Notes under the pieces: model-generated
What the model was told of the DNA's origin: nothing
The model's input: the letters and a program-made list of their open reading frames with translations, nothing else
Databases searched by the model: none
Shown here: one piece after another, positions 6,991-53,560 of the stretch
Layout: each line of letters opens with the position of its first letter
How positions within the stretch are numbered: position 1 is the stretch's first letter
Assembly (NCBI GenBank): GCA_032718475.1
Contig: JAUCBJ010000598.1
Coordinates: 1-53,905, forward strand
DNA: 53,905 nt
Source: Nemertoderma westbladi
Lineage: Eukaryota > Animalia > Xenacoelomorpha
Direction: 5' to 3'
Position numbers and translations under genes: made by a program

Positions 6991-7518
6991 TAGTAAGCAA
7001 CCTTCCTATGTAAGGCGCCCAATCAATAGGATGGGTGGAGGGTATGTAAGCTGTACAATGTTTTCCTATGGAGTATTACAGCCTACTGACTGAGTCGAGG
7101 GAATAAGCCTAAGTTGTCGTCAATGGTTACACAGAGGTAGGACGAGTCATGTGACACAATGTTGCTTGCAGAGACGACAAATAATTCCTCCCAAAATATA
7201 TATTAATTATAATTATAATAATACAGTATATTGGTTTTTGGAATATTACGCTGTCAGAGGTCCAAGTTGTAAATATTGGATCTGAGGGTGAATATGTGAG
7301 CTTAAATATTAATTAACTCAATGATATGTATGTATATCAGTTAAAGGTTCATTGATATTTATTATGAAATAATAATCTTGGAATTAAAACAAATTACAAA
7401 AATTAAATACAAAGCGTTACTTATACCTATAAATAAATAAGCAGTAGTCAAACATAACTCCATGCATGAGTGGCTAAACCTTCTAGCCTTCCCTTTTAGC
7501 CTGAGGATTCCCCCCCAC

Positions 7519-8765: not shown

Positions 8766-8910
8766 ATTTATTATATATATAGATTGCCAAACTTTCCAAT
8801 GCAACTTCCACTTTAGTCAGAGCGGGCAATGCTCGACTCCGGCTAGAGCAGTAATATATTTTGAAAATATTTGTAAGATACTTAAAAAATAAATTATGTT
8901 TTCTAAATTT

Positions 8911-11348: not shown

Positions 11349-11654
11349 CCAATAACAAAGAGTTGAAGTGCCTTGCTCAGAAACCATAACGAATATAGCA
11401 AGGTTTAAATCAGGATCTGTAAATCAGTGCGAACCTATGGTGGTATTGCAAGTTTAGTGAAGTTAATGGACATCCCTTGATTACCCTGGTGACAGACCAG
11501 GTTGGAGAGGCGATTCAAGTGACAGACCAGGTGGGAGTGACAGTTTAAGTGACTAACCAGTTGTACTGGTACACTAACCTATGTATTTTTTTTGGTTTTT
11601 ATTTTTTTTTAGTAAATAGGCCTACAATGTACCACTACTTACTTAAATAACTAT

Positions 11655-13240
11655 TATATATATAGATTGCCAAACTTTCCAATGCCACTTCCACTTTAGT
11701 CGGAGCGGGCAATGCTCGACTCGACTTGCCAATTTTGTCAGTGACTGATCTTCATCACTGCTTGAGTCGAATAAACGTTTCAAGCAAGAAGCAGCTGATG
11801 GAGTATCAACCCTGATGAGATCTACCCTGCAGGGTGAAACAATAGCAGATCTTGATGGTGTTCTTGAGTTACTCTGAGAACTGCCAGGGAAATGAGTTAT
11901 GAATGGCACAGTTAATAGGTTATTCTCACTAACATCTTGAGTGTTCTCAATGTCTACTTCGTCACAATCACTTAGATTTGGTAATGTGACGTCTCCAGAC
12001 CTATCCATGGTGGCAGGGATGTCTATTATCCTTGGAAGAGGTGCCGGTACTGTGAATCTGACATTATTGAAGTTAAGGTTAACTTGAACTAAAGCATTAC
12101 GAGTTTTAGATATATTATCCTCAGTGGGAATTTTCTGGGATTATCCTGTTTGGGGGCCTCCAAAACCAGGCAGGTTAGTAAAGGAGCAGGTTACAGAGGC
12201 GAGTTGAAAAGAACCAAAACAATAAATGTGAGTGAGGAATGTTGTAGAATCGAAAACCAAATTTAATTGGGAATCAACAGTCAGATGTATAGACCTACTG
12301 GAACTCTGAATAGACTGGAGGCCCACAAACAGGATAGAGCTGGAATTTTAGTGCGATCTACGCATATACCTAGGTTTCGTAGAAAGTCTGTTGTCAGATC
12401 CATAGTACTTTTTAGGGACTTTGAATCAAAAATAGTTTGTGAAAACGATGGAACTTTCTGTTTCATGGATGATGGTTATGTAGGCCTAACTATTTCCGCA
12501 TTTTTTATATGATCTTTGCATTCTGAAAGAGGTATTTCTTTATGTTTGTTGTTGAAGTGCCGCACAGTCAGGTAATGAGTTTCAACCTTGCATATTGGGC
12601 ACTTCCTGATTGTTCGGTTTAAAGTATTTCATTTTCGTTTTAGTTTAAGTTTCAACGCGATGGCGAATTAAGGCGATGGGCTCGTTGGTTGGATGGTGAT
12701 TCACTATCATCAGAATCCGATGATGATAAATCCATCAGGGAAGATGAGAGAAAACACCATGAGAAGCGGGAGAAATCCGTAAGGATAAAGAAACTAGGGG
12801 AGAGAGGATCGTCACATCGGATGAAGCGATCGGCATCAGGAAGAGATAGCGATTACAGTGGGAGCAGCAGTGGGACTGATGAAGACGAGGATACGATACC
12901 CCTGTTGGAGGACAAGAATCCTTGGCAGGCCTGCCTTCTGAGTACTGGCAGATATAGAAACTGATTATATATATATCTTAACGGTGGCAAACATACAGTC
13001 ACATTATCACAGCGCTGTGCACTTTGCTTAACTTCAACCTTGGTGGGTAGGAGACATATCAGTTTGCTATACAAGAGGTTGGATGGTTGGAGGTGCTTAT
13101 TATTCTCCTGGTGACTAAAGATATTTGATGTCAAATTATTGGTACATTAATTATTCTCACATAAATCTCATGAAATGTTCAGATTCGCAAAGAAATTACT
13201 GATCTAGGTGGTCTACAGTCTATATCAGATGGTGTCATCA
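11655..13240. repeat. Local segmental duplication, copy B (lacks ~1 kb present in copy A)
   Basis: 11655-11722 matches 8770-8838 and is joined directly to sequence matching 9845 onward. Confidence 0.9.
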
Positions 13241-13397
13241 GATGGAAAGTGAAGATCTTACAGGTGGGTGGAACGGACGGGTGTTACAAGTGTGTACAAC
13301 GGCAGGGAGTTAAAGGTATGTGGAATGGGAGGGGATTTCATGTGTGTGGAACAGGAGTGAGATAAAGGTGTGTGGAACGGAAGGGAGTTACAAGTGT

Positions 13398-14350: not shown

Positions 14351-15653
14351 GGGAGTATACGTTGAGCATACACCAGGAGCATACACCAGGGGCATACACC
14401 AGGGGCATACACCAGGTGCATACACCAGGAGCATACACCAGGAGCATACACCAGGGGCATACACCAGGGGCATACACCAGGAGCATACACCAGGAGCATA
14501 CACCAGGAGCATACACCAGGAGCATACACCAGGGGCATACACCAGGAGCATACACCAGGAGCATACACCAGGGGCATACACCAGGAGCATACACCAGGAG
14601 CATACACCAGGAGCATACACCAGGGGCATACACCAGGAGCATACACCAGGAGCATACACCAGGAGCATACACCAGGAGCATACACCAGGAGCATACACCA
14701 GGAGCATACACAGTGATATTAATATTAAAAATTATTATAGTGGAAATTATAATACTGGGAATTAGATCAACAAATCAATTTATTTGTTAAGTATAAGACG
14801 GTCGACCGACGCAGAAATAAAAAATGTAATTATTACGTGCTTATAAGCGAGGGGCCCAATAGGCCCCTTCTTCAGGTAATTTAATTACACAGTAGGTTAT
14901 ATCCGTCTTATCATCAACATCAATATTTCGTATACTAAACAGTCAATCCAACTAAATACCTAATATATTAAATAACAAACATGTTATTCAAATAACCATT
15001 TTCAAACTTTAAAAGTGAGACATTAAAAACTGAAAATTTTAAATACAATAATATTCAACAAATTATTGCTATAGTAGGCATATTTATTATATTAAAATAG
15101 ACCTTGTCAGACAACGAACGAGGTAGTTCAGTTTGAACCAATCTGAAAACCAAACCAACCAAACTGGTGTATGCTCTTGGTGTATGCTCCTGGTGTATGC
15201 TCCTGGTGTATGCTCCTGGTGTATGCTCCTGGTGTATGCTCCTGGTGTATGCTCCTGGTGTATGCTCCTGGTGTATGCCCCTGGTGTATGCTCCTGGTGT
15301 ACCTGGTGTAAGCTCCTGGTGTATGCACCTGGTGTATGCCCATGGTGTATGCTCCTGGTGTATGCTCCTGGTGTATGCTCCTGGTGTATGCTCCTGGTGT
15401 ATGCACCTGGTGTATGCCCCTGGTGTATGCCCCTGGTGTATGCACCTGGTGTATGCCCCTGGTGTATGCTCCTGGTGTATGCCCCTGGTGTATGCTCCTG
15501 GTGTATGCACCTGGTGTATGCCCCTGGTGTATGCCCCTGGTGTATGCCCCTGGTGTATGCCCCTGGTGTATGCCCCTGGTGTATGCCCCTGGTGTATCCT
15601 CCTGGTGTATGCCCCTGGTGTATGCCCCTGGTGTATGCTCAACGTATACTCCC
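14351..15653. mobile_element. Foldback/MULE-like non-autonomous element with arms made of 13-bp tandem repeats
   Basis: TIR GGGAGTATACGTTGAGCATACA…TGTATGCTCAACGTATACTCCC. Arms of GCATACACCAGG(A/G/T) repeats at 14365-14710 and, inverted, 15165-15640. 9-bp TSD AGCTGTAAC at 14342-14350 and 15654-15662. Confidence 0.9.
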
Positions 15654-25782: not shown

Positions 25783-27172
25783 TTGATTTTGAACCATTCA
25801 TCTCTCGTTCTAACAAACACTATGTTCGATTTTGAACCATTCAACTCACGTTCTAACAAACACTATGTTCGATTTTTAACCATTCAACTCACGTTCTAAC
25901 AAACACTATGTTCGATTTTTAACCATTCAACTCACGTTCTAAGAAACACTACGTTCGATTTTGAACCATTCATATCACGTTCTAACAAACACTATGTTCG
26001 ATTTTGAACCATTCATATCACGTTCTAACAAACACTATGTTCGATTTTGAACCATTCAACTCACGTTCTAAGAAACACTACGTTCGATTTTGAACCATTC
26101 ATATCACGTTCTAACAAACACTATGTTCGATTTTGAACCATTCATATCACGTTCTAACAAACACTATGTTAGATTTTGAACCATTCAACTAACGTTCTAA
26201 GAAACACTACGTTCGATTGTGAACCATTCATCTCACGTTCTAAGAAACACTACGTTCGATTTTGAACCATTCAACTCACATTCTAACAAACACTATGTTC
26301 GATTTTGAACCATTCATCTCTCGTTCTAACAAACACTATGTTCGATTTTGAACCATTCATATCACGTTCTAACAAACACTATGTTCGATTTTGAACCATT
26401 CATATCACGTTCTAACAAACACTATGTTCGATTTTGAACCATTCAACTCACGTTCTAAGAAACACTACGTTCGATTTTGAACCATTCATATCACGTTCTA
26501 ACAAACACTATGTTCGATTTTGAACCATTCATATCACGTTCTAACAAACACTATGTTAGATTTTGAACCATTCAACTAACGTTCTAAGAAACACTATGTT
26601 AGATTTTGAACCATTCAACTCACGTTCTAACAAACACTATGTTCGATTTTTAACCATTCAACTCACGTTCTAACAAACACTACGTTCGATTGTGAACCAT
26701 TCATCTCACGTTCTAACAAACACTACGTTCGATTTTGAACCATTCATATCACGTTCTAACAAACACTATGTTCGATTTTGAACCATTCATATCACGTTCT
26801 AACAAACACTATGTTCGATTTTGAACCATTCAACTCACGTTCTAAGAAACACTATGTTCGATTTTGAACCATTCAACTCACGTTTTAAGAAACACTACGT
26901 TCGATTTTGAACCATTAATCTCACGTTCTAACAAACACCATGTTCGATTGTGAACCATTCATCTCACGTTCTAACAAACAATATGTTCGATTTTAACCAT
27001 TCATCTCACGTTCTAACAAACACTGCGTTCGATTTTGAACCATTAATCTCACGTTCTAACAAACAATATGTTTGATTTTGAACCATTAATCTCACGTACT
27101 AACAAACACTACGTTCGATTTTGAACCATTCACCTAACGTTCTAACAAACACTACGTTCGATTTTGAACCAT
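25783..27172. repeat. 43-bp intronic minisatellite, ~32 copies
   Basis: Unit GTTCGATTTTGAACCATTCA(A/T)(C/A)TCACGTTCTAACAAACACTA(T/C). Confidence 0.96.
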
Positions 27173-27210
27173 TTAACCCCGCCAATGCGTATAAGCACAG
27201 TGGAACCCAC

Positions 27211-28516: not shown

Positions 28517-30836
28517 GGGTCAGAGTAAAACGCGGATCCGGATTCTATCATTTAACATTGTCCCTATGGAAGTCGACTGAATTTACATTTTTAGGGTGTA
28601 ATCTGCGGATCCGTGCACTGCTAAATTTACCGAATCCGTAACCGAGTGTAAAATGCGGATTGGCCTTTTTTTCAGATCCGGAACGGAGTGTAAAGCGCGG
28701 ATTCATGTTTTAGGCTAAATCCTGAACGGAGTGTAAAACGCGGATTCATTTTTCTACTGAATCCGGGATTGGGTGTAAAATACGGATTCAGGTTTATTAC
28801 AAAGTTTTATTAAATCCGGGAAGGGGTGTAAAATGCGGATTCAAGTTAATTACCATGTTTTATTGGATCCGGAATGGAGTGTAAAACGCGGATTCTAGTT
28901 AATTACCAAGTTTTGTTGGATCCGGAATGGAGTGTAAAACACGGATTTTCGTTAATTACCAAGTCTTATTGGATCCGGAATGGAGTGTAAAACACGGATT
29001 TTCGTTAATTACCAAGTCTTATTGGATCCGGAATGGAGTGTAAAACACGGATTTAAGTTAATTATAAGTTTTATTGGATCCGGAATGGAGTGTAAAACAC
29101 GGATTTACGTTAATTATCAAGTTTTGTTGGATCCGGAATGGAGTGTAAAACACGGATTTACGTTAATTACCAAGTTTTATTGGATCCGGAATGGAGTGTA
29201 AAACACGGATTTACGTTAATTACTAAGTTTTATTGGATCCGGAATGGAGTGTAAAACACGGATTTACGTTAATTACCAAGTTTTATTGGATCCGGAACGG
29301 AGTGTAAAACACGGATTTATGTTAAATACCAAGTTTTATTGGATCCGGGAAGGGGTGTAAAACGCAGATTCAAGTTAATTAGTAAGTTTTAATGAACAAT
29401 TTGTAAAACGCATATGCAATAAAGACCCAGACCCTCATCTAGTTACAATTATTAATTAGTGCAATGTTTATTGTTCTTTAGTAACTTTTCTTGGCTTGCT
29501 GACTTTCCTGGTTTTTTTTCTTCTCCGGACTCGGGGTGCACGATGTTTGCGTAGTAAGTTCAAGCGGCTCAACAATGGCTGTATCATTGGTTGGACTCGG
29601 AATAACGAATCCTGTAAATGGAACCTTTACAAAGTCATCACTGTCATCCATGTTTAATAAGAAATTATACTTAACAGTTCAGCCTCCATAAATTAGGAAG
29701 GCAGCACGCTTGCAAGGCCTTAAATAGAGTACGCTATGATGCAGTACAAACTACCGCCAGCTAGGCAGAACAGTGATTCTTGTTTGTAATGGAGGTTGGG
29801 ATGGATAAGCCAATCAGGGAACAGGACAGTAATCCTACCATACAATTGTCTACAGAGCCGCTCTACCAGAGAGGTCACGTTCCCACGGTAGTAGTTTTTC
29901 AGCTAATCAATATCTAATAATGTCTGACGGCCAAACATCACCATCGCCCTTATTAATAATTCATTGGGAAGCATTGACCCCTATTAAGGTGTCCCCCAGA
30001 GCCGGATTAAGCTTATGTGTGGCCCCTAGACATAGACAAATTATTAAGGTGTCTATTAACTATTAAGGTGTCCCCCATTAATGTTTGTGTCCCTCATTAA
30101 TGTGTGTCCCTCATTAATAGTTGTGTCCCTTATTAACAAACTCAGTAATTAACGTAAATCCGCATTTTACACCCCTTCCCGGATCCAGTAACACTTTGTA
30201 ATTAACCTGAATCAATCCGCGTTTTACACCCCTTCCCGGATCTAGTAACACTTGGTAAATAAATTGAATCCGCGTTTTACACCCCTTCCCGGATCCATTA
30301 AAACTTGGTAATTAACGAAAATCCGTGTTTTACACTCCATTCCGGATCCAACAAAACTTGGTAATTAACGAAAATCCGCGTTTTACACTCCATTCCGGAT
30401 CCAACAAAACTTGGTAATTAACGAAAATCCGTGTTTTACACTCCATTCCGGATCCAATAAAACTTGGTAATTAACGTAAATCCGTGTTTTACACTCCATT
30501 CCGGATCCAACAAAACTTGGTAATTAACGAAAATCCGTGTTTTACACTCCATTCCGGATCCAACAAAACTTGGTAATTAACTTGAAATCCGTGTTTTACA
30601 CTCCATTCCGGATCCAATAAAACTTAGTAATTAACGTAAATCCGTGTTTTACACTCCATTCCGGATTCACAAAATATATGAATCCGCGTTTTACACTGCA
30701 ATACGGATTGCGTATTTCAGAATCCGCATATTACACTCAGTTACGGATTGTATGTAAATCCGGATCCGCCTTTTACACTCGCAAATCCGGGTCCTGATCC
30801 GGATCCTGAATCCGGATCCGCGTTTTACACCTGCCC
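28517..30836. mobile_element. Foldback/MULE-like element with arms made of 53-bp tandem repeats
   Basis: Termini GGG…GTAAAACGCGGATCCGGATTC in inverted orientation. 53-bp units at ~28810-29390 and, inverted, ~30145-30665. 9-bp TSD AATTATTTT at 28508-28516 and 30837-30845. Confidence 0.9.
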
Positions 30837-31524: not shown

Positions 31525-31740
31525 CGGTATCCCCTGTGGGGCTCCAGACTGGGCGACTTTCTGCATCATCCGACTGTAGGTGTTCCGTCCGCTGTGACCC
31601 GGAGTTATAAAGCTCACTTTGATTGGTCGCCCACCCAACACGCACCCGTTCAACTTCAACCACGTCAATTCGCACTTCTCTGGTGTCTCATAGGCAACTA
31701 TAGCGAAACCTTTGGGACGTCCGTCTTGTCCAATGGCGAG
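31525..31740 (-). CDS. RAVER1: RAVER-like coding exon 5 (RRM3)
   Basis: LAIGQDGRPKGFAIVAYETPE…SGAPQGIP; CAG acceptor and GTATGT donor, phase 0 to 0. Confidence 0.88.
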
Positions 31741-32115: not shown

Positions 32116-33984
32116 CAAGATTATAGTAAACGTACATTAAACGTACAAGATTACAGTAAACGTACAGTAAACGTACAAGATTACAGTAAACGTACAGTAA
32201 ACGTACAAGATTACAGTAAACGTACAAGATTACAGTAAACGTACAATAAACGTACAAGATTACGGTAAACGTACAATAAACGTACAAGATTACAGTAAAC
32301 GTACATTAAACGTACAATATTACAGTAAACGTACAATAAACGTACAAGATTACAGTAAACGTACAAGATTATAGTAAACGTACAATAAACGTACAAGATT
32401 ACAGTAAACGTACAAGATTACAGTAAACGTACAAGATTATAGTAAACGTACAATAAACGTACAAGATTACAGTAAACGTACATTAAACGTACAAGATTAT
32501 AGTAAACGTACAGTAAACGTACAATAAACGTACAAGATTACAGTAAACGTACAAGATTATAGTAAACGTACAATAAACGTACAAGATTACAGTAAACGTA
32601 CATTAAACGTACAAGATTACAGTAAACGTACAATAAACGTACAAGATTACAGTAAACGTACAAGATTACAGTAAACGTACATTAAACGTACAAGATTATA
32701 GTAAACGTACAGTAAACGTACAAGATTACAGTAAACGTACAAGATTACAGTAAACGTACAAGATTATAGTAAACGTACAATAAACGTACAAGATTACAGT
32801 AAACGTACATTAAACGTACAAGATTACAGTAAACGTACATTAAACGTACAAGATTACAGTAAACGTACAATAAACGTACAAGATTACAGTAAACGTACAA
32901 GATTACAGTAAACGTACATTAAACGTACAAGATTACAGTAAACGTACATTAAACGTACAAGATTATAGTAAACGTACATTAAACGTACAAGATTATAGTA
33001 AACGTACAATAAACGTACAAGATTACAGTAAACGTACAAGATTACAGTAAACGTACATTAAACGTACAAGATTATAGTAAACGTACAGTAAACGTACAAT
33101 AAACGTACAAGATTACAGTAAACGTACAAGATTACAGTAAACGTACATTAAACGTACAAGATTATAGTAAACGTACAGTAAACGTACAATAAACGTACAA
33201 GATTACAGTAAACGTACAAGATTATAGTAAACGTACAATAAACGTACAAGATTACAGTAAACGTACATTAAACGTACAAGATTACAGTAAACGTACAATA
33301 AACGTACAGTAAACGTACAATAAACGTACAAGATTACAGTAAACGTACAAGATTACAGTAAACGTACATTAAACGTACAAGATTATAGTAAACGTACATT
33401 AAACGTACAAGATTATAGTAAACGTACAATAAACGTACAAGATTACAGTAAACGTACAAGATTACAGTAAACGTACAGTAAACGTACAAGATTACAGTAA
33501 ACGTACAGTAAACGTACAAGATTACAGTAAACGTACAAGATTACAGTAAACGTACAAGATTACAGTAAACGTACAGTAAACGTACAAGATTACAGTAAAC
33601 GTACAGTAAACGTACAAGATTACAGTAAACGTACAATAAACGTACAAGATTACAGTAAACGTACAATAAACGTACAAGATTACAGTAAACGTACAATAAA
33701 CGTACAAGATTACAGTAAACGTACAATAAACGTACAAGATTATAGTAAACGTACAATAAACGTACAAGATTACAGTAAACGTACAAGATTACAGTAAACG
33801 TACAATAAACGTACAAGATTACAGTAAACGTACAAGATTACAGTAAACGTACAGTAAACGTACAAGATTACAGTAAACGTACAATAAACGTACAAGATTA
33901 CAGTAAACGTACAATAAACGTACAAGATTACAGTAAACGTACAATAAACGTACAAGATTACAGTAAACGTACAATAAACGTACA
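32116..33984. repeat. Compound intronic minisatellite of 11-bp and 19-bp modules
   Basis: ACA(G/A/T)TAAACGT and ACAAGATT+ACAGTAAACGT in mixed order, often as a 30-bp pair. Confidence 0.96.
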
Positions 33985-34017: not shown

Positions 34018-34250
34018 CTGGCAGTATCGAGGTTCCGCTACTTTACTGAACACCTGGCGGAACCTCTGGGAATCCCGGAAGTCGTCCGGTAGGTCGACAT
34101 GCAGACAGGTGGAACCCAGCTTCTCCCAGCGGGCGTGGTTATCGTCGGCCCAATCACAACGCAGTGTGTGCGACGCCACCTTGTGGTTGTTAAGGTTAGG
34201 TTTCGCTTTGCGAGCCTGATCTTTAGTGGCGTATTCAACGAAACCGTAGC
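34018..34250 (-). CDS. RAVER1: RAVER-like coding exon 4 (RRM2 RNP1 through RRM3)
   Basis: CATAG acceptor completes KG-YGFVEY; ends …AEPRYCQ with donor CAG|GTAGGG, phase 1 to 0. Confidence 0.9.
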
Positions 34251-34417
34251 CTATGGGAATATTAGTAAATAAACAACCAGACTAGAAAGATACATCAGAA
34301 TTAATGAATGTGGTTGGTAATGTTATGAAGTCACTGTCACTTTAAACCGACAAAAGTGTAGCAAAAACTTTAAATGTTCATATCGTTTGATTGCGTGTAC
34401 GAAATTCTACAATTTTG

Positions 34418-37400
34418 CTCACTAACCTTTACCGTGGCCCATAGCCTCACTAACATTTACCGTGGCCCGTAGCCTCACTAACCTTTACCGTGGCCCGTAG
34501 CCTCACTAACATTTACCGTGGCCCGTAGCCTCACTAACCTTTACCGTGGCCCGTAGCCTCACTAACCTTTACCGTGGCCCGTAGCCTCACTAACCTTTAC
34601 CGTGGCCCGTAGCCTCACTAACCTTTACCGTGGCCCGTAGCCTCACTAACCTTTACCGTGGCCAGTAGCCTCACTAACCTTTACCGTGGCCCGTAGCCTC
34701 ACTAACCTTTACCGTGGCTCGTAGCCTCACTAACCTTTACCGTGGCCCGTAGCCTCACTAACCTTTACCGTGGCCCGTAGCCTCACTAACCTTTACCGTG
34801 GCCCGTAGCCTCACTAACCTTTACCGTGGCCCGTAGCCTCACTAACCTTTACCGTGGCCCGTAGCCTCACTAACCTTTACCGTGGCCCGTAGCCTCACTA
34901 ACCTTTACCGTGGCCCGTAGCCTCACTAACCTTTACCGTGGCCCGTAGCCTCACTAACCTTTACCGTGGCCCGTAGCCTCACTAACCTTTACCGTGGCCC
35001 GTAGCCTCACTAACCTTTACCGTGGCCCGTAGCCTCACTAACCTTTACCGTGGCCCGTAGCCTCACTAACCTTTACCGTGGCCCGTAGCCTCACTAACCT
35101 TTACCGTGGCCCGTAGCCTCACTAACCTTTACCGTGGCCCGTAGCCTCACTAACCTTTACCGTGGCCCGTAGCCTCACTAACATTTACCGTGGCCCGTAG
35201 CCTCACTAACCTTTACCGTGGCCCGTAGCCTCACTAACCTTTACCGTGGCCCGTAGCCTCACTAACCTTTACCGTGGCCCGTAGCCTCACTAACCTTTAC
35301 CGTGGCCCGTAGCCTCACTAACCTTTACCGTGGCCCGTAGCCTCACTAACCTTTACCGTGGCCCGTAGCCTCACTAACCTTTACCGTGGCCCGTAGCCTC
35401 ACTAACCTTTACCGTGGCCCGTAGCCTCACTAACCTTTACCGTGGCCCGTAGCCTCACTAACCTTTACCGTGGCCCGTAGCCTCACTAACCTTTACCGTG
35501 GCCCGTAGCCTCACTAACCTTTACCGTGGCCCGTAGCCTCACTAACCTTTACCGTGGCCCGTAGCCTCACTAACCTTTACCGTGGCCCGTAGCCTCACTA
35601 ACCTTTACCGTGGCCCGTAGCCTCACTAACCTTTACCGTGGCCCGTAGCCTCACTAACCTTTACCGTGGCCCGTAGCCTCACTAACCTTTACCGTGGCCC
35701 GTAGCCTCACTAACCTTTACCGTGGCCCGTAGCCTCACTAACCTTTACCGTGGCCCGTAGCCTCACTAACCTTTACCGTGGCCCGTAGCCTCACTAACCT
35801 TTACCGTGGCCCGTAGCCTCACTAACCTTTACCGTGGCCCGTAGCCTCACTAACCTTTACCGTGGCCCGTAGCCTCACTAACCTTTACCGTGGCCCGTAG
35901 CCTCACTAACCTTTACCGTGGCCCGTAGCCTCACTAACCTTTACCGTGGCCCGTAGCCTCACTAACCTTTACCGTGGCCCGTAGCCTCACTAACCTTTAC
36001 CGTGGCCCGTAGCCTCACTAACCTTTACCGTGGCCCGTAGCCTCACTAACCTTTACCGTGGCCCGTAGCCTCACTAACCTTTACCGTGGCCCGTAGCCTC
36101 ACTAACCTTTACCGTGGCCCGTAGCCTCACTAACCTTTACCGTGGCCCGTAGCCTCACTAACCTTTACCGTGGCCCGTAGCCTCACTAACCTTTACCGTG
36201 GCCCGTAGCCTCACTAACCTTTACCGTGGCCCGTAGCCTCACTAACCTTTACCGTGGCCCGTAGCCTCACTAACCTTTACCGTGGCCCGTAGCCTCACTA
36301 ACCTTTACCGTGGCCCGTAGCCTCACTAACCTTTACCGTGGCCCGTAGCCTCACTAACCTTTACCGTGGCCCGTAGCCTCACTAACCTTTACCGTGGCCC
36401 GTAGCCTCACTAACCTTTACCATGGCCGTAGCCTCACTAACCTTTACCGTGGCCCGTAGCCTCACTAACCTTTACCGTGGCCCGTAGCCTCACTAACCTT
36501 TACCGTGGCCCGTAGCCTCACTAACCTTTACCGTGGCCGTAGCCTCACTAACCTTTACCGTGGCCCGTAGCCTCACTAACCTTTACCGTGGCCCGTAGCC
36601 TCACTAACATTTACCGTGGCCCGTAGCCTCACTAACCTTTACCGTGGCCCGTAGCCTCACTAACCTTTACCGTGGCCCGTAGCCTCACTAACCTTTACCG
36701 TGGCCCGTAGCCTCACTAACCTTTACCGTGGCCCGTAGCCTCACTAACCTTTACCGTGGCCCGTAGCCTCACTAACCTTTACCGTGGCCCGTAGCCTCAC
36801 TAACCTTTACCGTGGCCCGTAGCCTCACTAACCTTTACCGTGGCCCGTAGCCTCACTAACCTTTACCGTGGCCCGTAGCCTCACTAACCTTTACCGTGGC
36901 CCGTAGCCTCACTAACCTTTACCGTGGCCCGTAGCCTCACTAACCTTTACCGTGGCCCGTAGCCTCACTAACCTTTACCGTGGCCCGTAGCCTCACTAAC
37001 CTTTACCGTGGCCCGTAGCCTCACTAACCTTTACCGTGGCCCGTAGCCTCACTAACCTTTTCCGTGGCCCGTAGCCTCACTCATCTTTACCGTGGCCCGT
37101 AGCCTCACTAACCTTTACCGTGGCCCGTAGCCTCACTAACCTTTACCGTGGCCCGTAGCCTCACTAACCTTTACCGTGGCCCGTAGCCTCACTAACCTTT
37201 ACCGTGGCCGTAGCCTCACTAACCTTTACCGTGGCCCGTAGCCTCACTAACCTTTACCGTGGCCCGTAGCCTCACTATCCATTACCGTGGCCCGTAGCCT
37301 CACTAACCTTTACCGTGGCCCGTAGCCTCACTAACCTTTACCGTGGCCCGTAGCCTCACTAACCTTTACCGTGGCCCGTAGCCTCACTAACCTTTACCGT

Positions 37401-40400
37401 GGCCCGTAGCCTCACTAACCTTTACCGTGGCCCGTAGCCTCACTAACCTTTACCGTGGCCCGTAGCCTCACTAACCTTTACCGTGGCCCGTGGCCTCACT
37501 AACCTTTACCGTGGCCCGTATCCTCACTAACCTTTACCGTGGCCCGTAGCCTCACTATCCATTACCGTGGCCAGTAGCCTCACTAACATTTACCGTGGCC
37601 CGTAGCCTCACTAACCTTTACCGTGGCCCGTAGCCTCACTAACCTTTACCGTGGCCCGTAGCCTCACTAACCTTTACCGTGGCCCGTAGCCTCACTAACC
37701 TTTACCGTGGCCCGTAGCCTCACTAACCTTTACCGTGGCCCGTAGCCTCACTAACCTTTACCGTGGCCCGTAGCCTCACTAACCTTTACCGTGGCCCGTA
37801 GCCTCACTAACCTTTACCGTGGCCCGTAGCCTCACTAACCTTTACCGTGGCCCGTATCCTCACTAACCTTTACCGTGGCCCGTAGCCTCACTAACCTTTA
37901 CCGTGGCCCGTAGCCTCACTAACCTTTACCGTGGCCCGTAGCCTCACTAACCTTTACCGTGGCCCGTAGCCTCACTAACCTTTACCGTGGCCCGTAGCCT
38001 CACTAACCTTTACCGTGGCCCGTAGCCTCACTAACCATTTACCGTGGCCCGTAGCCTCACTAACCTTTACCGTGGCCCGTAGCCTCACTAACCTTTACCG
38101 TGGCCCGTAGCCTCACTAACCTTTACCGTGGCCCGTAGCCTCACTAACCTTTACCGTGGCCCGTAGCCTCACTAACCTTTACCGTGGCCCGTAGCCTCAC
38201 TAACCTTTACCGTGGCCCGTAGCCTCACTAACCTTTACCGTGGCCCGTAGCCTCACTAACCTTTACCGTGGCCCGTAGCCTCACTAACCTTTACCGTGGC
38301 CCGTAGCCTCACTAACCTTTACCGTGGCCCGTAGCCTCACTAACCTTTACCGTGGCCCGTGGCCTCACTAACCTTTACCGTGGCCCGTATCCTCACTAAC
38401 CTTTACCGTGGCCCGTAGCCTCACTATCCATTACCGTGGCCAGTAGCCTCACTAACATTTACCGTGGCCCGTAGCCTCACTAACATTTACCGTGGCCCGT
38501 AGCCTCACTAACCTTTACCGTGGCCCGTAGCCTCACTAACATTTACCGTGGCCCGTAGCCTCACTAACCTTTACCGTGGCCCGTAGCCTCACTAACCTTT
38601 ACCGTGGCCCGTAGCCGCACTAACCTTTTCCGTGGCCCGTAGTCTCACTCATCTTTACCGTGGCCCGTAACCTCACTAACCTTTACCGTGGCCCGTAGCC
38701 TCACTAACCTTTTCCGTGGCCCGTAGTCTCACTCATCTTTACCGTGGCCCGTAACCTCACTAACCTTTACCGTGGCCCGTAGCCTCACTAACCTTTACCG
38801 TGGCCCGTAGCCTCACTAACATTTACCGTGGCCCGTAGCCTCACTAACATTTACCGTGGCCCGTAGCCTCACTAACCTTTACCGTGGCCCGTAGCCTCAC
38901 TAACCTTTACCGTGGCCCGTAGCCTCACTAACCTTTACCGTGGCCCGTAGCCGCACTAACCTTTTCCGTGGCCCGTAGTCTCACTCATCTTTACCGTGGC
39001 CCGTAGCCTCACTAACATTTACCGTGGCCCGTAGCCTCACTAACATTTACCGTGGCCCGTAGCCTCACTAACATTTACCGTGGCCCGTAGCCTCACTAAC
39101 CTTTACCGTGGCCCGTAGCCTCACTAACATTTACCGTGGCCCGTAGCCTCACTAACCTTTACCGTGGCCCGTAGCCTCACTAACCTTTACCATGGCCCGT
39201 AGCCTCACTAACCTTTACCGTGGCCCGTAGCCTCACTAACCTTTACCGTGGCCCGTAGCCTCACTAACATTTACCGTGGCCCGTAGCCTCACTAACCTTT
39301 ACCGTGGCCCGTAGCCTCACTAACCTTTACCGTGGCCCGTAGCCGCACTAACCTTTTCCGTGGCCCGTAGTCTCACTCATCTTTACCGTGGCCCGTAACC
39401 TCACTAACCTTTACCGTGGCCCGTAGCCTCACTAACCTTTTCCGTGGCCCGTAGTCTCACTCATCTTTACCGTGGCCCGTAACCTCACTAACCTTTACCG
39501 TGGCCCGTAGCCTCACTAACCTTTACCGTGGCCCGTAGCCTCACTAACCTTTACCGTGGCCGTAGCCTCACTAACCTTTACCGTGGCCAGTATCCTCACT
39601 AACCTTTACCGTGGCCCGTAGCCTCACTAACCTTTACCGTGGCCCGTAGCCTCACTAACCTTTACCGTGGCCCGTAGCCTCACTAACCTTTACCGTGGCC
39701 CGTAGCCTCACTAACCTTTACCGTGGCCCGTAGCCTCACTAACCTTTACCGTGGCCCGTAGCCTCACTAACCTTTACCGTGGCCCGTAGCCTCACTAACA
39801 TTTACCGTGGCCCGTAGCCTCACTAACCTTTACCGTGGCCCGTAGCCTCACTAACATTTACCGTGGCCCGTAGCCTCACTAACATTTACCGTGGCCCGTA
39901 GCCTCACTAACCTTTACCGTGGCCCGTATCCTCACTAACCTTTACCGTAGCCCGTAGCCTCACTAACCTTTACCGTGGCCCGTAGCCTCACTAACCTTTA
40001 CCGTGGCCCGTAGCCTCACTAACCTTTACCGTGGCCCGTAGCCTCACTAACCTTTACCGTGGCCCGTAGCCTCACTAACATTTACCGTGGCCCGTAGCCT
40101 CACTAACCTTTACCGTGGCCCGTAGCCTCACTAACATTTACCGTGGCCCGTAGCCTCACTAACATTTACCGTGGCCCGTAGCCTCACTAACCTTTACCGT
40201 GGCCCGTAGCCTCACTAACCTTTACCGTGGCCCGTAACCTCACTAACCTTTACCGTGGCCCGTAGCCTCACTAACCTTTACCGTGGCCCGTAGCCTCACT
40301 AACCTTTACCGTGGCCCGTAGCCTCACTAACCTTTACCGTGGCCCGTAGCCTCACTAACCTTTACCGTGGCCCGTAGCCTCACTAACCTTTACCGTGGCC

Positions 40401-43400
40401 AGTAGCCTCACTAACCTTTACCGTGGCCCGTAGCCTCACTAACCTTTACCGTGGCCCGTAGCCTCACTAACCTTTACCGTAGCCCGTAGCCTCACTAACC
40501 TTTACCGTGGCCCGTATCCTCACTAACATTTACCGTGGCCCGTAGCCTCACTAACCTTTACCGTGGCCCGTAGCCTCACTAACATTTACAGTGACCCGTA
40601 CCGTAGCCTCACTATCCATTACCGTGGCCCGTAGCCTCACTAACCTTTACCGTGGCCAGTAGCCTCACTAACATTTACCGTGGCCCGTAGCCTCACTAAC
40701 CTTTACCGTGGCCCGTAGCCTCACTAACCTTTACCGTGGCCCGTAGCCTCACTAACCTTTACCGTGGCCCGTAGCCTCACTAACCTTTACCGTGGCCGTA
40801 GCCTCACTAACCTTTACCGTGGCCAGTAGCCTCACTAACCTTTACCGTGGCCCGTAGCCTCACTAACCTTTACCGTGGCCGTAGCCTCACTAACCTTTAC
40901 CGTGGCCAGTAGCCTCACTAACATTTACCGTGGCCCGTAGCCTCACTAACCTTTACCGTGGCCCGTAGCCTCACTAACCTTTACCGTGGCCCGTAGCCTC
41001 ACTAACATTTACCGTGGCCCGTAGTCTCACTAACCTTTACCGTGGCCCGTAGCCTCACTAACCTTTACCGTGGCCCGTAGCCGCACTAACCTTTACCGTG
41101 GCCCGTAGTCTCACTAACCTTTACCGTGGCCCGTAGTCTCACTAACCTTTACCGTGGCCCGTAGCCTCACTAACCTTTACCGTGGCCCGTAGCCTCACTA
41201 ACCTTTACCGTGGCCCGTAGCCTCACTAACATTTACCGTGGCCCGTAGCCTCACTAACCTTTACCGTGGCCCGTAGCCTCACTAACATTTACCGTGGCCC
41301 GTAGCCTCACTAATATTTACCGTGGCCGTAGCCTCACTAACCTTTACCGTGGCCAGTAGCCTCACTAACCTTTACCGTGGCCAGTAGCCTCACTAACCTT
41401 TACCGTGGCCCGTAGCCTCACTAACCTTTACCGTGGCCCGTAGCCTCACTAACCTTTACCGTGGCCCGTAGCCTCACTAACCTTTACCGTGGCCCATAGC
41501 CTCACTAACCTTTACCGTGGCCCGTAGCCTCACTAACCTTTACCGTGGCCAGTAGCCTCACTAACCTTTACCGTGGCCAGTAGCCTCACTAACCTTTACC
41601 GTGGCCCGTAGCCTCACTAACCTTTACCGTGGCCGTAGCCTCACTAACCTTTACCGAGGCCAGTAGCCTCACTAACCTTTACCGTGGCCCGTAGCCTCAC
41701 TAACCTTTACCGTGGCCCGTAGCCTCACTAACCTTTACCGTGGCCCGTAGCCTCACTAACCTTTACCGTGGCCCGTAGCCTCACTAACCTTTACCGTGGC
41801 CCGTAGCCTTACTAACCTTTACCGTAGCCTGTACCATAGCCTCACTAACCTTTACAGTGGCCCGTAGCCTCACTAACCTTTACCGTGGCCCCTAGCCTCA
41901 CTAACCTTTACCGTGGCCGTAGCCTCACTAACCTTTACCGTGGCCCGTAGCCTCACTAACCTTTACCGTGGCCTGTACCATAGCCTCACTAACCTTTACC
42001 GTGGCCTGTACCATAGCCTCACTAACCTTTACCGTGGCCCGTAGCCTCACTAACCTTTACCGTGTCCTGTACCATAGCCTCACTAACCTTTACCGTGGCC
42101 CGTAGCCTCACTAACCTTTACCGTGGCCCGTAGCCTCACTAACCTTTACCGTGGCTCGTAGCCTCACTCATCTTTACCGTGGCTCGTAGCCTCACTAACC
42201 TTTTCCGTGGCCCGTAGCCTCACTAACCTTTACCGTGGCCCGTAGCCTCACTAACCTCTACCGTGGCCGTAGCCTCACTAACCTTTACCATGGCCGTAGC
42301 CTCACTAACCTTTTCCGTGGCCCGTAGCCTCACCAACATTTACCGTGGCCCGTAGCCTCACTAACCTTTACCGTGGCCCGTAGCCTCACTAACCTTTACC
42401 GTGGCCCGTAGCCTCACTAACCTTTACCGTGGCCCGTAGCCTCACTAACCTTTACCGTGGCCGTAGCCTCACTAACCTTTACCATGGCCGTAGCCTCACT
42501 AACCTTTTCCGTGGCCCGTAGCCTCACTAACCTTTACCGTGGCCCGTAGCCTCACTAACCTCTACCGTGGCCGTAGCCTCACTAACCTTTACCATGGCCG
42601 TAGCCTCACTAACCTTTTCCGTGGCCCGTAGCCTCACCAACATTTACCGTGGCCCGTAGCCTCACTAACCTTTACCGTGGCCCGTAGCCTCACTAACCTT
42701 TACCGTGGCCCGTAGCCTCACTAAACTTTACCGTGGCCCGTAGCCTCACTAACCTTTACCGTGGCCGTAGCCTCACTAACCTTTACCGTGGCCCGTAGCC
42801 TCACTAACCTTTACCGTGGCCTGTACCATAGCCTCACTAACCTTTACCGTGGCCTGTACCATAGCCTCACTAACCTTTACCGTGGCCCGTAGCCTCACTA
42901 ACCTTTACCGTGGCCTGTACCATAGCCTCACTAACCTTTACCGTGGCCCGTAGCCTCACTAACCTTTACCGTGGCCCGTAGCCTCACTAACCTTTTCCGT
43001 GGCCCGTAGCCTCACTAACCTTTACCGTGGCCCGTAGCCTCACTAACCTCTACCGTGGCCGTAGCCTCACTAACCTTTACCATGGCCGTAGCCTCACTAA
43101 CCTTTACCGTGGCCCGTAGCCTCACTAACCTTTAACATGGCCCGTAGCCTCACTAACCTTTACCGTGGCTCGTAGCCTCACTAACCTTTTCCGTGGCCCG
43201 TAGCCTCACCAACATTTACCGTGGCCCGTAGCCTCACTAACCTTTACCGTGGCCCGTAGCCTCACTAACCTTTACCGTGGCCCGTAGCCTCACTAACCTT
43301 TACCGTGGCCCGTAGCCTCACTAACCTTTACCGTGGCCGTAGCCTCACTAACCTTTACCGTGGCCCGTAGCCTCACTAACCTTTACCGTGGCCTGTACCA

Positions 43401-46030
43401 TAGCCTCACTAACCTTTACCGTGGCCTGTACCATAGCCTCACTAACCTTTACCGTGGCCCGTAGCCTCACTAACCTTTACCGTGGCCTGTACCATAGCCT
43501 CACTAACCTTTACCGTGGCCCGTAGCCTCACTAACCTTTACCGTGGCCCGTAGCCTCACTAACCTTTTCCGTGGCCCGTAGCCTCACTAACCTTTACCGT
43601 GGCCCGTAGCCTCACTAACCTCTACCGTGGCCGTAGCCTCACTAACCTTTACCATGGCCGTAGCCTCACTAACCTTTACCGTGGCCCGTAGCCTCACTAA
43701 CCTTTAACATGGCCCGTAGCCTCACTAACCTTTACCGTGGCTCGTAGCCTCACTAACCTTTACCGTGGCCCGTAGCCTCACTGGCTCGTAGCCTCACTAA
43801 CATTTACAGTGACCCGTACCGTAGCCTCACTAACCTTTACCGTGGCCCGTAGCCTCACTAACCTTTACCGTGGCCCGTAGCCTCACTAACCTTTACCGTG
43901 GCCCGTAGCCTCACTAACCTTTACCGTGGCCCGTAGCTTCACTAACCTTTACCGTGGCTCGTAGCCTCACTAACCTTTACCGTGGCTCGTAGCCTCACTA
44001 ACCTTTTCCGTGGCCCGTAGCCTCACTAACCTTTACCGTGGCCCGTAGCCTCACTAACCTTTACCATGGCCGTAGCCTCACTAACCTTTACCGTGGCCCG
44101 TAGCCTCACTAACCTTTTCCGTGGCCCGTAGCCTCACTAACCTTTACCGTGGCCCGTAGCCTCACTAACCTTTACCATGGCCGTAGCCTCACTAACCTTT
44201 ACCGTGGCCCGTAGCCTCACTAACCTTTACCGTGGCCCGTAGCCTCACTATCCATTACCGTGGCCCGTAGCCTCACTAACCTTTACAGTGGCCGTAGCCT
44301 CACTAACCTTTACCGTGGCCCGTGGCCTCACTAACCTTTACCGTGGCCCGTAGCCTCACTAACCTTTACCGTGGCCCGTAGCTTCACTAACCTTTACCGT
44401 GGCTCGTAGCCTCACTAACCTTTACCGTGGCCCGTAGCCTCACTAACCATTACCGTGGCCTGTAGCCTCACTAACCTTTACCGTGGCCCGTAGCCTCACT
44501 AACCTTTACCGTGGCCCGTAGCCTCACTAACCTTTACCGTGGCCCGTAGCCTTAATAACCTTTACCATGGCCCGTAGCCTCACTAACCTTTACCGTGGCC
44601 CGTAGCCTCACTAACCTTTACCGTGGCCCGTAGCCTCACTAACCTTTACCGTGGCCCGTAGCCTCACTAACCTTTACCGTGGCCCGTAGCCTCACTAACC
44701 TTTACCGTGGCCCGTAGCCTCACTAACATTTACCGTGGCCCGTAGCCTCACTAACCTTTACCGTGGCCCGTAGCCTCACTAACCTTTACCGTGGCCCGTA
44801 GCCTCACTAACCTTTACCGTGGCCCGTAGCTTCACTAACCTTTACCGTGGCCCGTAGCCTCATTAACCTTTACCGTGGCCCGTAGTCTCACTAACCTTTA
44901 CCGTGGCCCGTAGCCTCACTAACCTTTACCGTGGCCCGTAGCCTCACTAACCTTTACCGTGGCCCGTAGCTTCACTAACCTTTACCGTGGCCCGTAGCCT
45001 CACTAACCTTTACCGTGGCCCGTAGCCTCACTAACATTTACCGTGGCCCGTAGCCTCACTAACCTTTTCCGTGGCCCGTAGCCTCACTAACCTTTACCGT
45101 GGCCCGTAGCCTCACTAACCTTTACCGTGGCCCGTAGCCTCACTAACCTTTACCGTGGCCCGTAGCCTCACTAACCTTTACCGTGGCCTCACTAACCTTT
45201 ACCGTGGCCCGTAGCCTCACTAACCTTTACCGTGGCCGTAGCCTCACTCATCTTTACCGTGGCCCGTAGCCTCACTAACCATTACCGTGGCCCGTAGCCT
45301 CACTGGGTCGTAGCCTCACTAACCTTTACCGTGGCCCGTAGCCTCACTAACCTTTACAGTGGCCGTAGCCTCACTAACCTTTACAGTGGCCGTAGCCTCA
45401 CTAACCTTTACCGTGGCCCGTAGCTTCACTAACCTTTACCGTGGCCCGTAGCCTCACTAACCTTTACCGTGGCCCGTAGCCTCACTAACATTTACCGTGG
45501 CCCGTAGCCTCACTAACCTTTACCGTGGCCCGTAGCCTCACTAACCTTTACCGTGGCCCGTAGCCTCACTAACCTTTACCGTGGCCTGTACCATAGCCTC
45601 ACTAACCTTTACCGTGGCCCGTAGTCTCACTAACCTTTACCGTGGCCCGTAGCCTCACTAACCTTTACCGTGGCCCGTAGCCTCACTAACCTTTACCGTG
45701 GCCCGTAGCCTCACTAACCTTTACCGTGGCCCGTAGCCTCACTAACCTTTACCGTGGCCCGTAGCCTCACTAACCTTTACCGTGGCCCGTAGCCTCACTA
45801 ACCTTTACCGGGGCCTGTAGCCTCACTAACCTTTACCGTGGCCGTAGCCTCACTAACCTTTACCGTGGCCCGTAGCCTCACTAACCTTTACCGTGGCCCG
45901 TGGCCCGTAGCCTCACTAACCTTTACCGTGGCCCGTAGCCTCACTAACCTTTACCGTGGCCGTAGCCTCACTAACCTTTACCGTGGCCGTAGCCTCACTA
46001 ACCTTTACCGTGGCCTGTAGCCTCACTAAC
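34418..46030. repeat. 28-bp satellite, roughly 410 copies, derived from the end of coding exon 3
   Basis: Plus-strand unit CTTTACCGTGGCCCGTAGCCTCACTAAC (period confirmed: 420 bp = 15 units). The terminal copy at 46003-46030 is coding sequence. Confidence 0.98.
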
Positions 46031-46236
46031 AACCAAGAAACATCGCTCTACCGTCCCGTTTGGATTTACCAAACGAAAGAAATCCTCTTTGGTCCACGTC
46101 AATGGCATGTTGGTTACGCACAACATCGCTTCTATTGGCGGCAAGGCTACATCGAGGGTCCGACCCTTGTAATACATACTCTGGAACTTTTCGATAGCCC
46201 CTCTCGCCATTTCCCCACTCGCTAAGGTCACAGTTG
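46003..46236 (-). CDS. RAVER1: RAVER-like coding exon 3 (end of RRM1, start of RRM2)
   Basis: TTTTCAG acceptor; …TVTLASGEMARGAI…[15 protein letters not shown]; donor AAG|GTTAGT, phase 1 to 1. Confidence 0.9.
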
Positions 46237-46520
46237 CTGAAAATAAACACGATTGTGAGAACTATAATATAAATAATCGGATTATCTACAACCTTCCGGC
46301 TAATTTTCAATGAGAGTAACAGTAAAAAATTAACATTAATTTATTGTTATATTTCCCCATAAAATATACAAAATTCTTTAAATTTCCAACCAGAATTTTG
46401 AGAACCTGAACAAAATATTGTTCTGTACTATTTAAACTAAATATTACAGGTCACTGAAAAAAGATACTAAATTTCAGGAACATGACATTCCGGTATGTAA
46501 ACAGTACACAATACACTTAC

Positions 46521-46593
46521 CCGCCGCCATCTCCCCAGTCCGTTCTACATGAGTCGAAATAACTTGATATCCAGAAAATAGAGCATTAATCTC
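46521..46593 (-). CDS. RAVER1: RAVER-like coding exon 2 (RRM1)
   Basis: TAG|GAG acceptor; EINALFSGYQVISTHVERTGEMAA; donor G|GTAAGT, phase 0 to 1. Confidence 0.82.
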
Positions 46594-47125
46594 CTAGATG
46601 GAAATAATACGACATTAAGTATATAACAACAACCAACAAACACAACAACAAATTATAGTAAGCAACAACATTAATTACCATACACAATATATAATAGAGA
46701 CAAAATAAAGATCTAGCTGTCTAGCAGGTTGTTCAGTGCCCATGCCCTAAAGCGATAAGCTCTATTTCATTGTCTTGTCTTGCCTGTCACCGGTACCGCA
46801 TACTTTAACCTTGTATCATTGGCTGGTATATTTTTTCATTAGCCAAACCAAGCAAGGACCGGCATTTATGGACCAACTATTAGGGTATTATTTGGGCGAT
46901 TTTTTCCCAGTCCAATTATTCTCGTTAGACTAGCATTAGGGAGGCAGAGACTCCCTTTCACATTCCAATGTCGGCTATATCTTCCTCTTCATTTGCGGTC
47001 ACTCCTGCTCTGGGAGATCTTCTCAGCTTCTCTCTGTCACTGCTTCTATCTTCTAAAGCTACCAACTATGCTACCGGTACTGTGAGGACTGGGATACAGG
47101 ACTACGCTACAACTCTACTACTAAC

Positions 47126-47296
47126 CTGGGCAGTTGCATCGTTAGGAAAGTTCCTCACCAACACTTTCCTACGGTTCGCAAATTCATTTTTTGCCTTCAT
47201 TATCGCATCCTCTTTAGATTTCTCTGGAAGCGGAACTAGAATATCTTCCGGGGGAAGTTGTTTCGGCAAATCTTCGTCCGTTTCCGGCTTTGACAT
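47126..47296 (-). CDS. RAVER1: RAVER-like coding exon 1
   Basis: MSKPET…NEFANRRKVLVRNFPNDATAQ; donor CAG|GTTAGT, phase 0. Confidence 0.85.
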
Positions 47297-47464
47297 CTTT
47301 ATGTCTTTGGTCAGTTGTAATTTATATATACCGGTATATAACTTTAAAATATAGCCTAATAACCAGTAATAACAGGATCATATCATATATATAGCCTAAT
47401 ATATAATCTGATAACAGGAAATAATAATAGCCGGTAAATAAAATATAGGCCCTAGGCCTACAGG

Positions 47465-51836: not shown

Positions 51837-53560
51837 TGGCCCCGAAAAAAAGATGGCGATCGAACAAAAGATCGAGGCCAGGATCAAGACGCAAATTAGG
51901 AGCAAGATCCTATAAGCAATATTCCGAGGATAAGTTAAACCAAGCTATCAATCTAATTAAAACTAAACAATTAACGCAACGGAAAGCTGCTAAAGAATTT
52001 AACATACCAAGGTCGACCTTAAAGAACAAACTTTCACAGAAACATTCTGGTCCCGTCGGTCAGTCGGTCACCCTAGCGCTCTAGGAATGGAGGAAGAAAA
52101 AATCATAGCCGAACGGTTTCGAATTATATCAGATTATGGGTTTCCTTTGACTTTCTTTGATTCACAAATGCTTATACATGAATACCTTCAGCGGCTAGGT
52201 AAACATGTAGCACAATTTAAAAATAACATCCCTGGGTACGAATATATTAAATCATTCATCAAACGAAATGGGCTCTCCTATCGACTTACTCAGAACATAA
52301 AAAAGAAAAGAGCTGAAGTTACCAAGGACATCATAAATGATTACTTTGATAATTTAGAAAAGGAATTGTCTGGTATACCAAATACAAATATCGTAAACTA
52401 CGATGAGACAAATCTGACTGACGATCCTGGTAGGAAGAGGTGTATTGTTCGACGAGGGTGCAAGTACCCAGAGAGGATAAAGAATTCTTCAAAAGCATCT
52501 ACCTCCATAATGGTTTTCTGGTGCTGCTGATGGGACCATGCTACCTATCCATGTAGTATATAATGCTGTTCATTTATATGATACCTGGACTCATGGTGGG
52601 CCCCTTGGGACAAGATTCGGTAGGACAAAGAGTGGGTGGTATGATACAATATATTTTACTGACTGGTTCATTAAGGTGGCACTACCGTATCTCAAGAAAC
52701 TGAAAGGTTCCAAGGTTGTCATAGGCGACAATCTTTCATCACACTTCAGTGGTGAAGTCCTCAAACTGTGTGATCGCAACGACATAAAGTTCATATGTTT
52801 ACCAGCGAACTCGACACATTTGACCCAGCCCCTTGACCGTGCATTTTTCGGCCCAATGAAACGTATTTGGCGGAAACAACTTGACCTTTGGAAATCTTCA
52901 AATCCTCGAAGTAATGTCACAGTACCAAAAGAAAAATTCCCAACCTTGCTTAAGAATCTCTTTGATGCCTTAGAAACAAAGAGCGATAACATCCGTAGTG
53001 GGTTCCGGGCATGTGGAATATATCCTTTAGATCGTCACGCTGTTCTTAAGAACTTACCATCTGCTCCACTAGCACCTGCTGATGTAGGAGCTGCTATAGA
53101 TAGTTCTGTCATTGATCACCTGGAGCAACTCCGCGGTCCACAAGGTCTTAATAAACGCAAGAAAAAATCTCGTCTAGAAGTACAACCTGGCAAGAGTGTG
53201 AGATCCCAAGATGAATCATTTAGTGAAAGTGATGTGAGCAATGTTGGCAACAGCAATACTGATGAAGCTGTTGGTGTTAATAGTGATGGTGATACCGATT
53301 ATGAGGGGGACACTGATGAGTATTTTGATAATGAAGAGGATACTGATTATAATGCGGATACAAGTTATGAGGATGAAGACAATGCAGATTATGATGAGAG
53401 AGACAATTCTGATGTGGATATCAATCCAGGGGTTACTGATTATGGTTATGGTGAGCATCTTGGAAGTGATGAGATAGAAGGTATAGCTGATTATGATCGG
53501 GATATTGATTACATGCCAGTAATGGCTGACCTCGACGATCTCGAGAATATGAACAATTGA
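51837..53560 (+). pseudogene. pogo/Tigger-like (CENP-B/DDE_1) transposase with two frameshifts
   Basis: psq-type HTH (YSEDKLNQAI…AAKEFNIPRSTL), a CENP-B-type HTH and catalytic motifs NYDETN, GDNLSSH and QPLD, split over three ORFs in different frames; acidic tail. Probable left end TA|CCGTA at ~51222. Confidence 0.9.

Follow-up and report, generated by a model that had tools for sequence, protein, structure and literature searches.

A 28-bp minisatellite built from an exon end repeats the 5' splice site in intron 3 of a RAVER-family gene of Nemertoderma westbladi

Minisatellites that span an exon-intron boundary are an already known class, represented by the 'mirages' of lancelets and by arrays in the human F7, CBS, 6-16 (IFI6), LMNB2 and PDGF genes. 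The locus examined here lies in Nemertoderma westbladi contig JAUCBJ010000598.1 (GenBank assembly GCA_032718475.1), of which positions 1 to 53,905, a stretch containing no N, constitute the window. It consists of a 28-bp tandem array in intron 3 of a gene of the RAVER family, and is probably a boundary minisatellite of the mirage type in which the first donor is spliced and the ~350 later copies are likely to be near-silent passengers of a neutral expansion. A first-pass annotation of this DNA knew of no named class for such an arrangement, but the lancelet and human arrays precede it.

In F7, identical donors downstream in the 37-bp variable number tandem repeat (VNTR) of intervening sequence 7 (IVS7) are functional and lose to the most upstream one, and this VNTR was used in 2006 as a test of first-donor choice (Borensztajn 2006, PMC1557585). 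CBS IVS13, 6-16 intron 2, LMNB2 and PDGF are cited in the same paper as boundary minisatellites, with 5-25 copies for the group including F7. In lancelets, the mirages of Adh3, the globins, TnC and PGBD5 are tandem duplications of exon-intron boundaries that are unstable in length and leave splicing undisturbed (PMC3087553, PMC3902484). Only the first donor is used in F7, LMNB2, PDGF and the lancelet mirages (PMC1557585, PMC3087553, PMC3902484), and one or two proximal copies are also used in CBS, 6-16 and ABCA7 (PMC1557585, PMC5954066). The VNTR in intron 18 of human ABCA7 has a 25-bp unit and alleles of up to 10,678 bp, or ~427 units (De Roeck 2018, PMC5954066). A cryptic donor one unit downstream yields an out-of-frame target of nonsense-mediated decay (NMD) independently of length, and both expression and exon 19 skipping vary with VNTR length (PMC5954066). 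Decoy exons in the introns of splicing-factor genes, to whose 3' sites U2AF binds, promote retention of the intron (Parra 2018, PMC6097662). No printed case with more donor copies in exon context was found in the literature searched, and the available text of PMC10078293 holds nothing on reiterated donors.

The array was delimited at 34418-46030 using Tandem Repeats Finder (TRF; period 28, 414.3 copies, 94% matches, score 19923), and its consensus unit on the sense (minus) strand is GTTAGTGAGGCTACGGGCCACGGTAAAG. The additional sequence sets were assembled contigs of four of the six runs listed, X5 and X6 being left out at a share of 0.00. X1 and X3 are from one sample (S1) of one study, X2 from a sample (S2) of a separate study and X4 from a further sample (S3), and these contigs were aligned to the array flanks with about three units each. 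X4 is not recorded as RNA, its RNA content being shown by a spliced contig. The features of the gene and the array are given below, with a slash marking the exon end in splice-site motifs.

47126..47296, minus strand: RAVER exon 1, coding portion starting at the ATG (translation; X4 contig at 47125-47355 joins exon 2)
46521..46593, minus strand: RAVER exon 2 (X4 joints with GT..AG ends; translation)
46003..46236, minus strand: RAVER exon 3, end of RRM1 and first half of RRM2, with the last 28 nt forming unit 1 of the array (structure match; X4)
45997..46005, minus strand: working 5' splice site AAG/GTTAGT, intron from 46002 (X4 contig)
34418..46030, minus strand: 28-bp minisatellite of 414 units with ~352 downstream donor copies (TRF; motif counts; X2 k-mer depth)
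34018..34250, minus strand: RAVER exon 4, RNP1 GYGFVEY of RRM2 and start of RRM3 (structure match; X4)
31531..31740, minus strand: RAVER exon 5 region, remainder of RRM3, with a provisional 3' boundary (structure match)

Unit 1 (46030-46003) was found to be the final 28 nt of exon 3, as the first-pass annotation had recognised, and all 28 nt of the repeat unit are exon sequence. Unit 1 differs from the consensus at a single position (46016, ACA vs ACG). This had been given as the sole difference between exon and array, which holds in the window but is not fixed, as the exon in X4 was inferred to carry ACG. The exact motif AAG/GTTAGT occurs 353 times in the array by motif count, with the real donor included, and at 352 of the 413 junctions in the unit alignment; the donor is thus repeated hundreds of times, although not in the ~410 copies first proposed. 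Most of the 414 units are 28 nt long (365), the other 49 being of 27 nt (30, among them units 2 and 3), 33 nt (13) or other lengths (6). A second donor-like site in each unit, ACG/GTAAAG (330 copies), is weaker than AAG/GTTAGT, with a U1 duplex energy of -5.5 vs -7.5 kcal/mol.

A 784-nt contig of X4 (depth 238.6) joins exons 1-2-3-4, with introns 1 and 2 removed at GT..AG ends. This contig, which includes unit 1 as its single unit, departs from the reference at 46002 and continues with the letters of exon 4, so that the junction from 46003 to 34250 expected from the earlier gene model is present. The first donor (46003/46002) is used in the X4 sample. The transcript extends at least to 47355, and the spliced contig is the sole X4 record on 45947-47400; no array contig and no alternative product were present in X4 at the regions aligned. 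In the contigs of this one run, from an individual whose array may be short or absent, no junction other than that of the first donor was seen. The ACG at 46016 follows from 0 mismatches between the X4 exon and the consensus unit and 1 mismatch to exon 3 of the window, and is absent from the alignment's own list of differences. ACA/ACG was therefore rejected as a marker of first-donor use. Positions 46016 and 34129 are exon variants in the X4 transcript, and the former is a CpG-type change for which the array consensus may preserve an older exon state or the exon may have been converted by the array.

Judged from its coding sequence, the host gene is a member of the RAVER (ribonucleoprotein PTB-binding) family, in agreement with its initial description as RAVER-like. 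Raver-1 (3h2u_B) was the best PDB match for exon 3 (residues 60-135, E 2.6e-16), exon 4 (residues 137-214, E 1.4e-7) and exon 5 (residues 215-273, E 1.4e-10), and the three RRMs across these exons are colinear with the N-terminal part of human Raver1. One RRM_1 domain (Pfam) is split, with positions 1-37 on exon 3 and 41-70 on exon 4, and exon 1 gave no Pfam match. RAVER proteins also carry PTB-binding peptide motifs in their C-terminal part. The proposed gene model was borne out by the joints in X4 and by the stop-free translation of exons 1-4 when joined (...VVSEATGHGK-G-YGFVEY...). A search for homologues with exon 3 (E up to 1e-8) scored 0 of 61 candidates, which is weak evidence.

U1 duplex energy is identical for donors 1 and 2 (-7.5), and their accessibilities are 0.009 and 0.007, respectively, within a range of 0.007-0.074 over the first 20 donor sites. 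As donor 1 is no stronger and no more open than its copies, position must decide, and RNA structure was rejected as the cause of first-donor choice. The choice could arise from exon definition across the 234-nt exon, or from selection of the first site in the 5'-to-3' direction as for F7. Intron 1 likewise starts with GTTAGT, hence such a donor is not unusual in the RAVER gene. No pyrimidine run in the array exceeds 4 nt, indicating that the array offers no acceptor, and recursive splicing was set aside for this reason.

Only three GT sites in the array keep the frame of the four exons open: 46002, which is the real donor, and two within exon 3 (46026 and 46008). All of the later donors listed in the translation test stop at codon 161, upholding the prediction that later donors include GGT TAG, an in-frame stop. 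Leakage to donor 2 or 3 would add this stop and create a predicted NMD substrate, so that the protein would stay unaltered and the cost to be expected is slightly less mRNA. Skipping of exon 4 (233 nt) would also shift the frame.

The array may have been born by slippage or unequal exchange between the donor's GT and a GT(TAGT...) that lies 28 nt into the exon, at codons Val-Ser, an event that would duplicate the exon end. Such a duplication would explain why the left edge of the array is in exact phase with intron position +1, and as the sequence just upstream of unit 1 differs from the unit end, a short match of the exon GTTAGT to the donor would have been the seed. A seed of this kind agrees with the slippage and direct-repeat models of minisatellite birth summarised in PMC3389668. 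Growth would have followed by repeated unequal exchange, latest at the exon-distal end. Divergence from the consensus falls from 0.046 in the first tenth of the array, on the exon side, to 0.003-0.004 in the last two tenths, and mixed units near the exon give way to nearly uniform units at the far end, with a higher-order variant pattern. The units near the exon are older than those at the far end, and the low distal divergence suggests recent growth or homogenisation there. The array includes 1,603 distinct 31-mers, the common ones each occurring ~240 times in the window. Its sense strand is G-rich (skew 0.37) and carries 358 two-tier G-quadruplex (G4)-like motifs, and one might guess that these contribute to array instability.

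The range first given for the feature was 34251-46030. The array lies in intron 3 (11,752 nt), but stops at 34418 in a 9-nt partial unit, leaving 167 nt of the intron outside it, made up as follows.

34329..34417, strand not assigned: 89 bp of a dispersed multi-copy element, truncated at the array end (contigs X1-X4)
34251..34328, minus strand: unique sequence at the intron 3' end, containing a CTAAT that resembles a branch point and the AG of the acceptor (sequence; single-copy depth)

Many X1-X4 contigs match 34329-34417 with loose ends, and the flanks diverge at 34329/34330. Several other copies of the element continue beyond 34417 with shared letters that are missing here, where the fragment directly abuts the partial unit; a second copy was not found within the window. 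A deletion or rearrangement has probably occurred at the distal end of the array, and would have set that end against the truncated dispersed repeat. As the array is fused to this repeat, the ancestral intron start may be lost and the length of the seed unreadable, and the present working donor may be exon-derived. A 9-bp seed repeat deduced from the partial last unit, which would imply an intron start of GTTAGTGAG, was weakened by the same junction, and the seed was perhaps only 2-6 nt.

The locus is generally repeat-prone, ten large arrays accounting for 18,745 of the 53,905 bp of the window, and other introns of the RAVER gene carry arrays that are not built from donors. Two further kilobase-sized minisatellites, at 32116-33984 and 25785-27173, begin ~35 bp beyond a donor of this gene, in the first case that of exon 4 and in the second a candidate donor further downstream, and their units are not exon copies.

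Several points weigh against a neutral boundary minisatellite with near-silent copies. The RNA in X4 derives from another individual (S3), and X4 contained no array k-mers, so the S3 allele may have a short array or none; the missing X4 coverage of introns 1 and 2 and of the array is, for its part, no proof of absence. Contigs drop rare variants and NMD removes the products of pseudo-donors, and a leak could therefore be hidden. By analogy with ABCA7, where longer arrays reduce expression and increase skipping of the following exon, the copies may not be silent, and the proposed birth steps are hypothetical.

The size of the array in other samples was estimated from the contig depth of three unit classes relative to their counts in the window, with contig sequences modelled from coordinates and depth being no copy number. 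In X2, the independent study, the classes reached 0.71, 1.02 and 0.86 of the expected depth, equivalent to about 296-424 units, whereas X1 and X3 (S1) gave 0.07-0.17, equivalent to about 29-72 units. Array k-mer depth relative to the unique flank is therefore ~tenfold lower in S1 than in S2, a gap that the adjoining dispersed repeat does not show. At least one sample besides the window is thus likely to have an array of hundreds of units. For S1, the low depth could reflect either shorter alleles or under-sampling of the GC-rich array by the library, and the even drop across all three unit classes favours library bias.

If the alleles were truly this different, the array could be a VNTR that acts as a length-dependent attenuator similar to that in ABCA7, with long alleles cutting RAVER output via exon 4 skipping, pseudo-donors, intron retention or chromatin. 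The gap between S1 (30-70 units) and S2 (300-420), which the neighbouring dispersed repeat does not share, would fit this, as would the broken frame that results from every later donor and from exon 4 skipping, and in ABCA7, over alleles of 298-10,678 bp, expression declines and exon 19 is skipped more often as length increases (PMC5954066). However, the three variant classes fall together in S1, as library bias would give, X1 and X3 are one sample of one study for which contig depth is no copy number, and use of the second donor in ABCA7 is constant with length (PMC5954066). An attenuator is unlikely on this evidence, and would be a side effect visible to selection and not a built device, although by analogy an effect of array length on RAVER expression is possible. 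A bolder proposal is that the working donor is a copy of the gene's own exon codons, with the ancestral start lost, that alleles range from ~30 to ~400 units, and that length sets the dose of a splicing cofactor via NMD leak, so that a wild population would naturally titrate identical 5' splice sites over a tenfold range; this is a long shot.

An assembly artefact, in which a short duplication was inflated by the assembler, was also considered. X1, which is possibly the source of the window DNA, has only 0.07-0.14 of the expected array depth, and no listed contig spans the array, the end contigs reaching 13 letters past the donor and 23 into the distal end, short of the 31 letters set as the bar for bridging. 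However, X2 is independent and gave 0.71-1.02 of the window counts for the three unit classes, a depth that fits ~300-420 units and makes an artefact unlikely, both array junction sequences are present in X1 and X2, and the distinct 31-mers, higher-order variant pattern and divergence gradient speak against an inflated duplication. Such an artefact is very improbable.

The first-pass annotation had also raised a U1 sink and autoregulation by the RAVER product, under which the donor ladder would be a selected decoy or sink through which RAVER/PTB-type factors tune their own level via unproductive splicing. The host is a PTB cofactor, PTBP1 autoregulates via NMD, retention of introns in SF3B1, ARGLU1, OGT and DDX39B is promoted by decoy exons that contain several splice sites (PMC6097662), and 352 of the 413 junctions are intact. 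However, intact junctions are expected of a young homogenised array, and the donor positions appear unprotected: among the 365 units of 28 nt, 12 substitution types fell on the 9 donor positions and 19 on the 19 other positions (P=0.44), and by this weak test there is no sign that donor positions drift differently from the rest of the unit, being neither kept nor purged. Decoys bind U2AF at a 3' site, whereas a pyrimidine tract is missing from the array, the X4 contigs showed no alternative product, other introns carry arrays without donors, and no report of RAVER autoregulation was found in the sources available to the literature search. The proposal is unsupported, and a selected element of this kind is more improbable still. 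That the tandem duplication created intron 3 itself, through the AG/GT contained in the unit and by a route proposed for lancelet mirages, is the least credible reading, as the acceptor is not a unit copy but sits in AT-rich, unique sequence 167 nt past the array, and exon 4 starts with GCTAC, not GTTAG.

Further repeats and remnants were noted elsewhere in the window. Two 53-bp arrays in opposite orientation (28633-29391 and 30138-30780) flank a central stretch in the manner of foldback or miniature inverted-repeat transposable element (MITE)-type arms, and two 13-bp arrays in opposite orientation (14364-14711 and 15164-15640) surround an AT-rich core as a second inverted-arm element. By eye, the minus strand at ~1-3400 has a long, seemingly open gag/pol-like sequence with zinc-knuckle, reverse transcriptase and integrase-like stretches and is probably a long terminal repeat (LTR) retrotransposon. 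A decayed reverse transcriptase fragment resembling a long interspersed element (LINE) is present at ~7500-8800, the 3' part of which recurs as a short inverted copy at ~6750-6970 (by eye), and a block of ~1.9 kb occurs about twice in tandem at ~9850-13250. Upstream of the RAVER gene, a transposase-like coding remnant was seen by eye on the plus strand at ~52300-53500.

Compared with the known systems, the RAVER array is distinctive in its size, in a unit wholly of exon sequence and in a distal end that abuts a truncated dispersed repeat. It resembles decoy exons in having several splice-site-like motifs within an intron of an RNA-processing gene, but lacks the pyrimidine tract taken as the sequence proxy for a U2AF site, and no retention was seen in the contigs. 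Lancelet mirages have units of 10-160 bp, with 3-6 copies in the globin case, and the RAVER array is far longer and more homogeneous. With ABCA7 it shares a start at the donor GT, a similar scale and a second donor whose product is an NMD target, by prediction in RAVER, and among the arrays in the literature compared it ranks with the largest (ABCA7, ~427 units). However, the ABCA7 array is described in the available account as starting at the GT and not as a copy of an exon end, and the effect of length on expression is a feature of ABCA7 that extends to RAVER by analogy only. The locus would gain in importance if array length altered the dose of RAVER, as changes in a splicing cofactor reach many transcripts. 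The first-pass annotation was right to see in it a natural experiment on first-donor selection, and the locus would be a ready test bed if alleles truly differ tenfold in length. As in arrays of the F7 type, the first unit spans the exon-intron boundary and identical pseudo-donors follow, the most upstream donor being the one chosen in F7, but F7-type arrays have 5-25 copies vs ~350 donors here, and the F7 unit comprises 4 exon and 33 intron nt whereas that of RAVER is 28 nt of exon sequence alone. The architecture and its usual outcome, in which the first donor wins, are thus known from F7, and the RAVER locus extends them to ~350 exact donors with full exon context, suggesting that the first donor is still chosen when identical sites outnumber it a hundredfold.

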